NCBI RefSeq assembly: GCF_024521635.1
Contig: NW_026250403.1
Span: forward strand, 1,302,001 to 1,366,000
Direction: 5' to 3'
Length of the DNA stretch: 64,000 nucleotides
DNA from: Tricharina praecox
Taxonomy: Eukaryota
The notes below the pieces were generated by a model. The model saw only the letters and a list, made by a program, of their open reading frames with translations, did not search any database and was not told the origin of the DNA. Made by a program: the position numbers and the translations under genes. Of this stretch, positions 59,335 to 59,890 are shown in pieces; within the stretch, counting starts at the first letter, position 1, and each line of letters starts with the position of its first letter.

Positions 59335-59423
59335 TGTTGATATGACTGCTGAGAGTAAGCACAACCAAATCCCGAGGACCGGGAAACGCAAAGCAGAGGG
59401 GAGGAGGGGGGAGGGGGGGATGA

Positions 59424-59553
59424 AGCATGTTCCTTTTCGCAAGTATTATCTTGATCAAGTTAAGACGGTATAATCTCAGAACGAATGTCTTCCATCATCC
59501 CTCTCTCGCGAAAGAGGTAGGATGATGGCAGACAGACGGACACCCGTTATGCT
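59424..59553 (-). ncRNA. TPP (THI-box) riboswitch aptamer within the THI4 5'-UTR intron
   Basis: Minus strand: AGCAT-AACGG-GTG..[P3 hairpin]..CTGAGA-TTATA-CCGT..AA-CTT-GAT-CAAG-ATAATA-CTTG-CGAAA-AGG-AAC-ATGCT; P1 AGCAT/ATGCT, P2 ACGG/CCGT, P4 CTT/AGG, P5 CAAG/CTTG. Confidence 0.95.
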
Positions 59554-59883
59554 CTCACCAATGAACATTACCTCGATCATAGATAGCAACTATTGCGATA
59601 GGCACCATGCCGTCTTCCCACACCACCACCACCGCCACCGCCAACGTCTTTGCTAGACGGGAGGACTGAATACATTTGAAGCTGTGTCCGAACTGTAAGT
59701 ATCAGCAACGCCATTCAAGCCACTTCAGGCAGAAGGGGTTGGAAGGGAGAAGTGAAGAATAAAGTGATCATTGCAGCAGCAGCATTGTGTATACGAACGT
59801 ATGGAAGAAGAAGATTTGTTTTCTGAGATGAGGATGAGTCGAGGTTGAGGAATGAGCACCTTTGAGATGGCGGACCTGAGCCC

Positions 59884-59890
59884 TTTATAT
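59884..59890 (-). promoter_or_regulatory. TATA box of THI4 (ATATAAA)
   Basis: ATATAAAGGG on the minus strand, followed by an AUG-free pyrimidine-rich first exon. Confidence 0.6.

Follow-up and report, generated by a model that had tools for sequence, protein, structure and literature searches.

Expression of THI4 in the 64,000-nt stretch of DNA analysed here (the window) is very probably repressed by a 'Type I' fungal TPP riboswitch, acting through the choice of 5' splice site in the second of two leader introns. The features concerned are listed in Table 1. Intron 1 (59798-59682) would be removed on its own, with retention of an 8-nt exon. At low TPP, the P4/P5 strand of the aptamer would pair with the 14 nt before the proximal donor S2 (59571), and the freed 5' strand of P1 would probably pair with positions +4 to +9 of S2. 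The distal donor S1 (59673) would then be used, which would take out 328 nt, split the AUG at 59675 and leave a leader of ~81 nt without AUG. At high TPP, the aptamer would fold, probably during transcription, freeing S2 for removal of 226 nt; a 102-nt segment would stay in the leader, and AUGs 59675, 59608 and 59580 would draw ribosomes from the THI4 start. The direction of the switch and the translational repression are proposed by analogy with Neurospora, where the same logic operates. An earlier note on this DNA had reached this Neurospora-type logic; masking of S2, as judged by folding and conservation, and use of 59571 agree with it, but its splice map was wrong in two places.

PF01946 matched three THI4 exons in a Pfam scan, the protein has the DQSCMD motif, and the best PDB match of exon 2 was CyPBP37, the N. 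crassa Thi4 (3JSK, E 2.4e-45). The ATG was found at 59334, after the tandem acceptor, as had been described. The top named relatives of exon 1 were Pyronema omphalodes (71%) and Geopyxis carbonaria (68%), pointing to a host lineage that is probably Pezizales. Two neighbouring genes have no apparent thiamine link: 61531-63998 on the minus strand is presumably a neurofibromin/Ira-type RasGAP and 56066-57125 on the plus strand presumably an SBDS/Sdo1 ribosome-maturation factor, both judged from translation.

Table 1. Features of the THI4 locus and its leader, in window positions
Feature	Position	Strand	Basis or remark
TATA box TATAAA	59884..59889	-	Sequence; aligned TATAAA in L010, CATAAA in L007
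Leader exon 1, AUG-free	59799..59860	-	5' end approximate; 59860 assumed for isoform models
Leader intron 1, 117 nt	59682..59798	-	Donor GTTCGT, acceptor CAG 59682
8-nt micro-exon CTTCAAAT	59674..59681	-	Explains X1 joint; conserved in relatives
Distal donor S1, GTATTC	59668..59673	-	Deduced from X1 joint; AAAT|GTA also in L007/L010
Alternative segment, 102 nt, kept on S2 use	59572..59673	-	In-silico isoforms
Anti-aptamer strand	59572..59585	-	13 bp with 59459-59447; folding, shuffles, relatives
Proximal donor S2, GTAATG	59563..59571	-	Joint 59345/59572 in X1 and X2
TPP aptamer	59424..59553	-	Rfam match, folding, comparison with relatives
Aptamer helices	P1 59553/59424, P2 59547/59465, P4 59459/59433, P5 59453/59440	-	P5 CAAG/CUUG
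Long P3 hairpin of aptamer	about 59539-59485	-	
Acceptor (second AG, 59346) with branch point GCTTAC (A 59356)	59346..59362	-	Joints end at 59345
THI4 coding region	58185..59334	-	324 aa; Pfam PF01946, RNA contig coding joints, protein translation
THI4 coding introns	59000-58946, 58652-58592, 58350-58292	-	Coding joints seen in RNA contigs

Transcript data were taken from Logan contigs, in which the label 'RNA' is the tool's guess, and four of the 21 listed runs were examined. Two runs from two studies (X1 and X2), holding about two thirds of the sampled words, gave contigs that join the THI4 coding introns with no listed sequence differences from the window; the other two (X3 and X4) held THI4 of other organisms, with no leader joints there. 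Contig depths give no isoform ratios. At the 5' end, ATATAAA is present at 59890-59884 and no ATG occurs between it and 59799, in keeping with the TATA box and AUG-free first exon previously reported. Contig depth falls upstream of about 59825, a weak indication, as contigs do not show starts. For comparison, a motif scan of metagenome contigs provided seven loci, comprising three THI4 loci (L007, L009 and L010), nearly identical to each other, and four NMT1 loci, two of them (L004 and L008) sharing one sequence across the region compared.

The leader joints define two introns. In one X1 contig 59681 is joined to 59799, marking removal of intron 1, for which TACTTAC (A 59696) is the probable branch point; unspliced contigs across this intron in X1 and X2 show that it is also retained. 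Another joint, 59345/59795 with ATTT between, is carried by one X1 contig only and equals exon 1 plus the micro-exon plus exon 3 at all but one of 41 positions (C in the literal reading, G in the micro-exon). The literal reading, with GTATAC at 59794 as donor, was rejected, as it needs four untemplated letters and the micro-exon reading none. The leader joints thus show the intron 59798-59682 followed by an 8-nt exon, and therefore GTTCGT at 59798 opens a separate intron and the distal donor is 59673. The micro-exon and S1 are strongly indicated by this one contig of one run together with conservation; an S1-type joint is not listed for X2. The THI4 relative (L007/L010) keeps the 117-nt intron 1, the 8-nt exon (8/8 identical in L007, 7/8 in L010) and AAAT|GTA, and the identity of intron 1 to L007 is 12/12 over its first 12 nt, 36/41 over its last 41 nt and 39/64 in the middle, a coding intron having 35/55. 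A twin-intron (stwintron-type) reading was rejected because the 8 nt stay in the RNA contig.

At the proximal donor, GAG|GTAATG was present at 59571 as claimed and is used in both runs of this sequence, the joint 59345/59572 corresponding to an intron 59571-59346 of 226 nt, although the tool marks the letters between the two sides of the joint as undetermined. GTGAGA at 59558, which is closer to consensus, was considered as proximal donor and set aside, being unused among the 15 joints listed, although absence from contigs is not proof. The tandem acceptor CAGCAG (59351-59346) and GCTTAC are likewise present, but the AG used is 59346 and not 59349; the branch A lies 10 nt from the former and 7 nt from the latter, compared with 11-14 nt in other THI4 introns. 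This block (59346..59362) is identical at 17/17 positions in L007. The intron that holds the aptamer belongs to the 5' UTR of THI4, a thiamine gene, and S1 (deduced from one X1 contig) and S2 (X1 and X2) are both used with a common acceptor.

The earlier note had instead drawn one leader intron with donors at 59798 and 59571 and an acceptor at 59349, giving introns of 450 and 223 nt. Its two predicted junctions, 59798>59349 and 59571>59349, were not seen among the 15 joints listed, the leader joints being 59345/59572, 59681/59799 and 59345/59795, and the competing introns given by the RNA contigs measure 328 (59673-59346) and 226 nt. Such a single intron is very improbable. Both donors are real, splicing from 59798 straight to 59346 (453 nt), past the micro-exon, would likewise leave an AUG-free leader, and rare variants get dropped from contigs. 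Nevertheless, the sole joint at 59798 goes to 59682 and not to the acceptor of the riboswitch intron, both riboswitch-intron joints end at 59345/59346, neither a 450- nor a 453-nt joint is among the 15 listed, and the micro-exon is conserved together with its flanks.

The consequences of each splice form for translation were derived by in-silico splicing of the leader. All six AUGs previously noted (59785, 59771, 59714, 59675, 59608 and 59580) are present, but the first three sit in the separate intron 1. When intron 1 is removed and S1 is used, no AUG remains ahead of THI4: AUG 59675 straddles S1 (AT|G) and is therefore destroyed by S1 splicing, which leaves the leader AUG-free. Removal of intron 1 with use of S2 keeps the remaining three, and the count for the relative is the same (0 vs 3). 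AUG 59675, with C at -3, opens a 32-aa uORF ending at a stop at 59579, and AUG 59580 a 12-aa out-of-frame uORF over the THI4 AUG. AUG 59608 has G at both -3 and +4 and reads in frame into THI4 without a stop, adding 16 aa to give a 340-aa product. If intron 1 is retained and S1 used, AUG 59714 overlaps the THI4 start out of frame, here and likewise in the relative, and retention of intron 1 would therefore repress too; this AUG, conserved in the relative, may represent a second layer of control.

The proposal that uORFs repress THI4 is less clean than first thought, since proximal splicing places AUG 59608 in the THI4 reading frame. This AUG counts against the favoured mechanism, as the 'off' isoform would yield an extended full-length Thi4. 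It could be argued that the riboswitch swaps protein forms, so that the S2 isoform makes Thi4 with a 16-aa N-terminal extension and another location or role, with the 8-nt exon letting S1 splicing destroy the first decoy AUG. The open frame, the G at -3 and +4 where AUG 59675 has C at -3, and the ready detection of the S2 joint in two runs all favour such a swap. It is nonetheless quite improbable: the matching AUG in L007/L010 ends after six codons and no upstream AUG there reads through, the extension is short and by eye unlike a targeting peptide, and AUG 59675 precedes 59608. Among the papers listed by a literature search for such an N-terminal extension, none was on fungal Thi4 by title. 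Lying behind AUG 59675, AUG 59608 most likely represents a leak that is tolerated.

Output through intron retention has also to be weighed. Unspliced contigs across the riboswitch intron occur in X1 and X2, and this retained form has seven upstream AUGs. In Candida parapsilosis, thiamine raises the unspliced form and the S2 form is found in both conditions, according to the accessible text of PMC5997356, and this DUR31 response sets a precedent for retention. The possibility that the main output here is intron retention or decay, with TPP blocking splicing of the riboswitch intron as it partly does in DUR31, is nevertheless unlikely, since the dedicated, conserved helix at S2 favours S2 control. 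Retention and S1/S2 choice are not exclusive, and both repress.

The P1 ends of the aptamer were found at exactly 59553 and 59424, the limits earlier assigned to it. Helices P1-P5 can be traced, and all three ligand-binding motifs listed in the accessible text of PMC5882874 (GAGAU, UAAU and GCG) are intact. By analogy with Neurospora, the aptamer would bind TPP. In an E-value scan of the window, RF00059 matched 59557-59413 over the whole model (positions 1-105) with 44.2 bits and E 2.7e-7, leaving 51 nt of P3 outside the alignment, but the score is under the gathering score of 54.3 bits, and a scan of the window at gathering scores therefore gave no Rfam match. The remaining seven of the eight E-value-scan matches had E 0.4 or worse. 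The other two RF00059 matches in the genome are likewise under the cut-off, and, as stated in the accessible part of PMC11683625, RF00059 performs less well on fungal aptamers with a long P3 stem. The low score, together with unresponsive predicted riboswitches reported in diatoms (PMC9544697, by its title), could be taken to mean that the aptamer is vestigial and splice choice independent of thiamine. This is extremely improbable, given that the 3' half of the aptamer is identical to the relative at 60/61 positions, whereas a coding intron shows 35/55 and coding exon 1 shows 276/334, and that the binding motifs and the anti-aptamer are intact. For a functional switch, thiamine would be expected, as in Neurospora, to shift splicing from S1 to S2 and to lower expression.

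Masking of S2 rests on a 13-bp helix between 59585-59572 and 59459-59447, with one G.U pair and one bulged A, found exactly as the earlier note had drawn it and with a predicted energy of -12.2 kcal/mol. Only 4 of 20000 shuffles of the 14-mer reached this energy. Among 1316 donor-like GU sites in the window, one is preceded by so good a 14-mer, and that one is the donor at 59571. Of 127,974 tiles of 14 nt on both strands of the window, 27 were at or beyond -12.2 kcal/mol, falling into seven clusters: this site, the aptamer strand, its complement and four unrelated places. Complementarity between the P4/P5 strand and the S2 region is thus present. When three lengths of sequence were folded without constraints, the helix was part of the minimum-energy fold, its 13 pairs having probabilities of 0.82-1.0. 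It covers the exon side of the donor, whose GU the masked fold leaves largely unpaired (0.77, 0.74). An extension of the helix over the donor GUAA through bases 5' of P4 was rejected, with probabilities of 0.00-0.01. A longer anti-aptamer, reaching to about 59599 over the P5 3' strand and GCG, is predicted in the window at -21.7 vs -12.3 kcal/mol and is matched by 45 of 2000 shuffles; in the relative it does no better than shuffled sequence (652/2000), and the NMT1 loci are mixed (270, 119 and 69 of 2000), so that it may be a possible, weaker extension.

On the intron side, positions +4 to +9 of S2 are predicted to pair with 59554-59549, the 5' strand of P1, with probabilities of 0.89-1.0 in the ligand-free fold. 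This pairing is also predicted in the relative and is absent from the three NMT1 loci compared; the stretch is invariant between both THI4 species, and covariation therefore lends it no support.

The masking helix is conserved beyond THI4. Across eight rows (the window and all seven metagenome loci, representing five distinct sequences), the best duplex within 470 nt upstream ends at GT in 8/8, with energies of -12.2 to -13.8 kcal/mol vs -5.7 to -8.9 for the second best. The eight pairs adjoining the donor GT are standard in all five distinct sequences. At pair 8, both THI4 species have A-U where the three NMT1 sequences have U.G, a both-sided change that is probably a single event. The 14-mer of the THI4 relative differs solely at the bulge and at the G.U position, which becomes A-U. 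In a local fold of L004 the masking helix did not form.

The masked ensemble lies 13.4 kcal/mol below the aptamer-enforced ensemble in a nearest-neighbour model that comprises no ligand, Mg or tertiary terms. With the masked fold this much more stable, a switch at equilibrium is doubtful and a kinetic switch must be assumed. A co-transcriptional mode of binding has been proposed for NMT1, for a like reason, in the accessible part of the review PMC7404189.

The closest known systems are the NMT1 (THI5) and THI4 switches of N. crassa, also described in PMC5882874 and PMC7404189, whose arrangement is the 'Type I' of PMC5882874 (in the naming of Mukherjee et al. 2018). There, the proximal donor is covered by the P4/P5 strand as long as TPP is absent, and with TPP proximal splicing leaves uORFs (PMC5997356, PMC3597705; all four sources as far as their accessible text goes). 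Like the present gene, those genes serve thiamine biosynthesis and carry the aptamer within a 5'-UTR intron; also in common are two donors before the aptamer with uORF starts between them, a P4/P5 strand complementary to bases at the second donor and a single acceptor just before the start codon. The study behind the N. crassa switches is reportedly that of Cheah et al. in 2007. Unlike them, the gene described here has a first upstream AUG that straddles S1 and one that is in frame with THI4, its P5 is CAAG/CUUG and not of the CUAG/CUAG type, and its lineage is probably Pezizales. A riboswitch-like domain was reportedly described by Kubodera et al. in 2003 in a 5'-UTR intron of Aspergillus oryzae thiA (THI4), which, likened by title alone, is the same gene and location as here. 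The two-intron leader layout may already have been described by Cheah 2007, Moldovan 2018, Kubodera 2003 or Gong 2019.

A GATCAAG|GT-type junction also occurs in Aspergillus clavatus NMT1 and a Bipolaris maydis transporter (PMC5882874 supplement, accessible part), and the catalogue of that paper, in the portion accessible, has one Pezizomycetes row, a Tuber transporter. The 'Type II' switch of N. crassa NCU01977/DUR31 has the same aptamer family and likewise controls donor choice, but in a coding intron and through long-range pairing of the P1 3' strand (PMC3597705, accessible text), in contrast to the leader intron and the P4/P5 pairing adjoining S2 found here. A literature search, whose coverage excludes most subscription journals, found no paper on a micro-exon with a riboswitch or a THI4 riboswitch and, for a two-intron arrangement, listed one paper, on marine algae; the accessible part of PMC8786325 holds nothing further on splicing. 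THI4 riboswitches are common in fungi: among 156 species surveyed, 107 were counted (PMC11683625, accessible part). The present case is an ordinary example of a known mechanism. It extends the published NMT1/THI4 switch to a THI4 that is probably of Pezizales, and both isoforms have support from transcripts (S1 from one contig). The 8-nt exon hides the real distal donor, so that such a layout is not safely readable from sequence alone. The decoy AUG over the distal donor, the predicted clamp of the P1 5' strand on S2 and the compensatory change at pair 8 are specialist-level refinements that leave the mechanism unchanged.

Other thiamine-related loci were encountered in the course of the search. 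The sole PF09084 (NMT1) match in the genome search was weak (L011, G000:C83:312242-312595, 31.5 bits); its start is unlike those of the L004-L006 NMT1 proteins, and the sequence upstream showed no aptamer. The assembly may lack a true NMT1/THI5, or the search may have missed it. Loose contig ends in X1 and X2 at window positions 59453 and 59486 lead into a further TPP aptamer with a CUAG-type P5, which shares ~33 nt with the one described here. Its flanks were not found in the assembly G000, where the core motif occurs once, and it could be explained by a gap in the assembly or by both runs containing a second organism. A second TPP aptamer is present in two near-identical copies, at L001:1500-1660 (G000:C27; 45.6 bits) and L003:777-932 (G000:C59; 38.2 bits), each preceding exons of a membrane transporter that is DUR31/urea-transporter-like by eye and having several GT donors upstream. 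These are probably Type II arrangements, and the pair of contigs may represent haplotypes or stem from a duplication.
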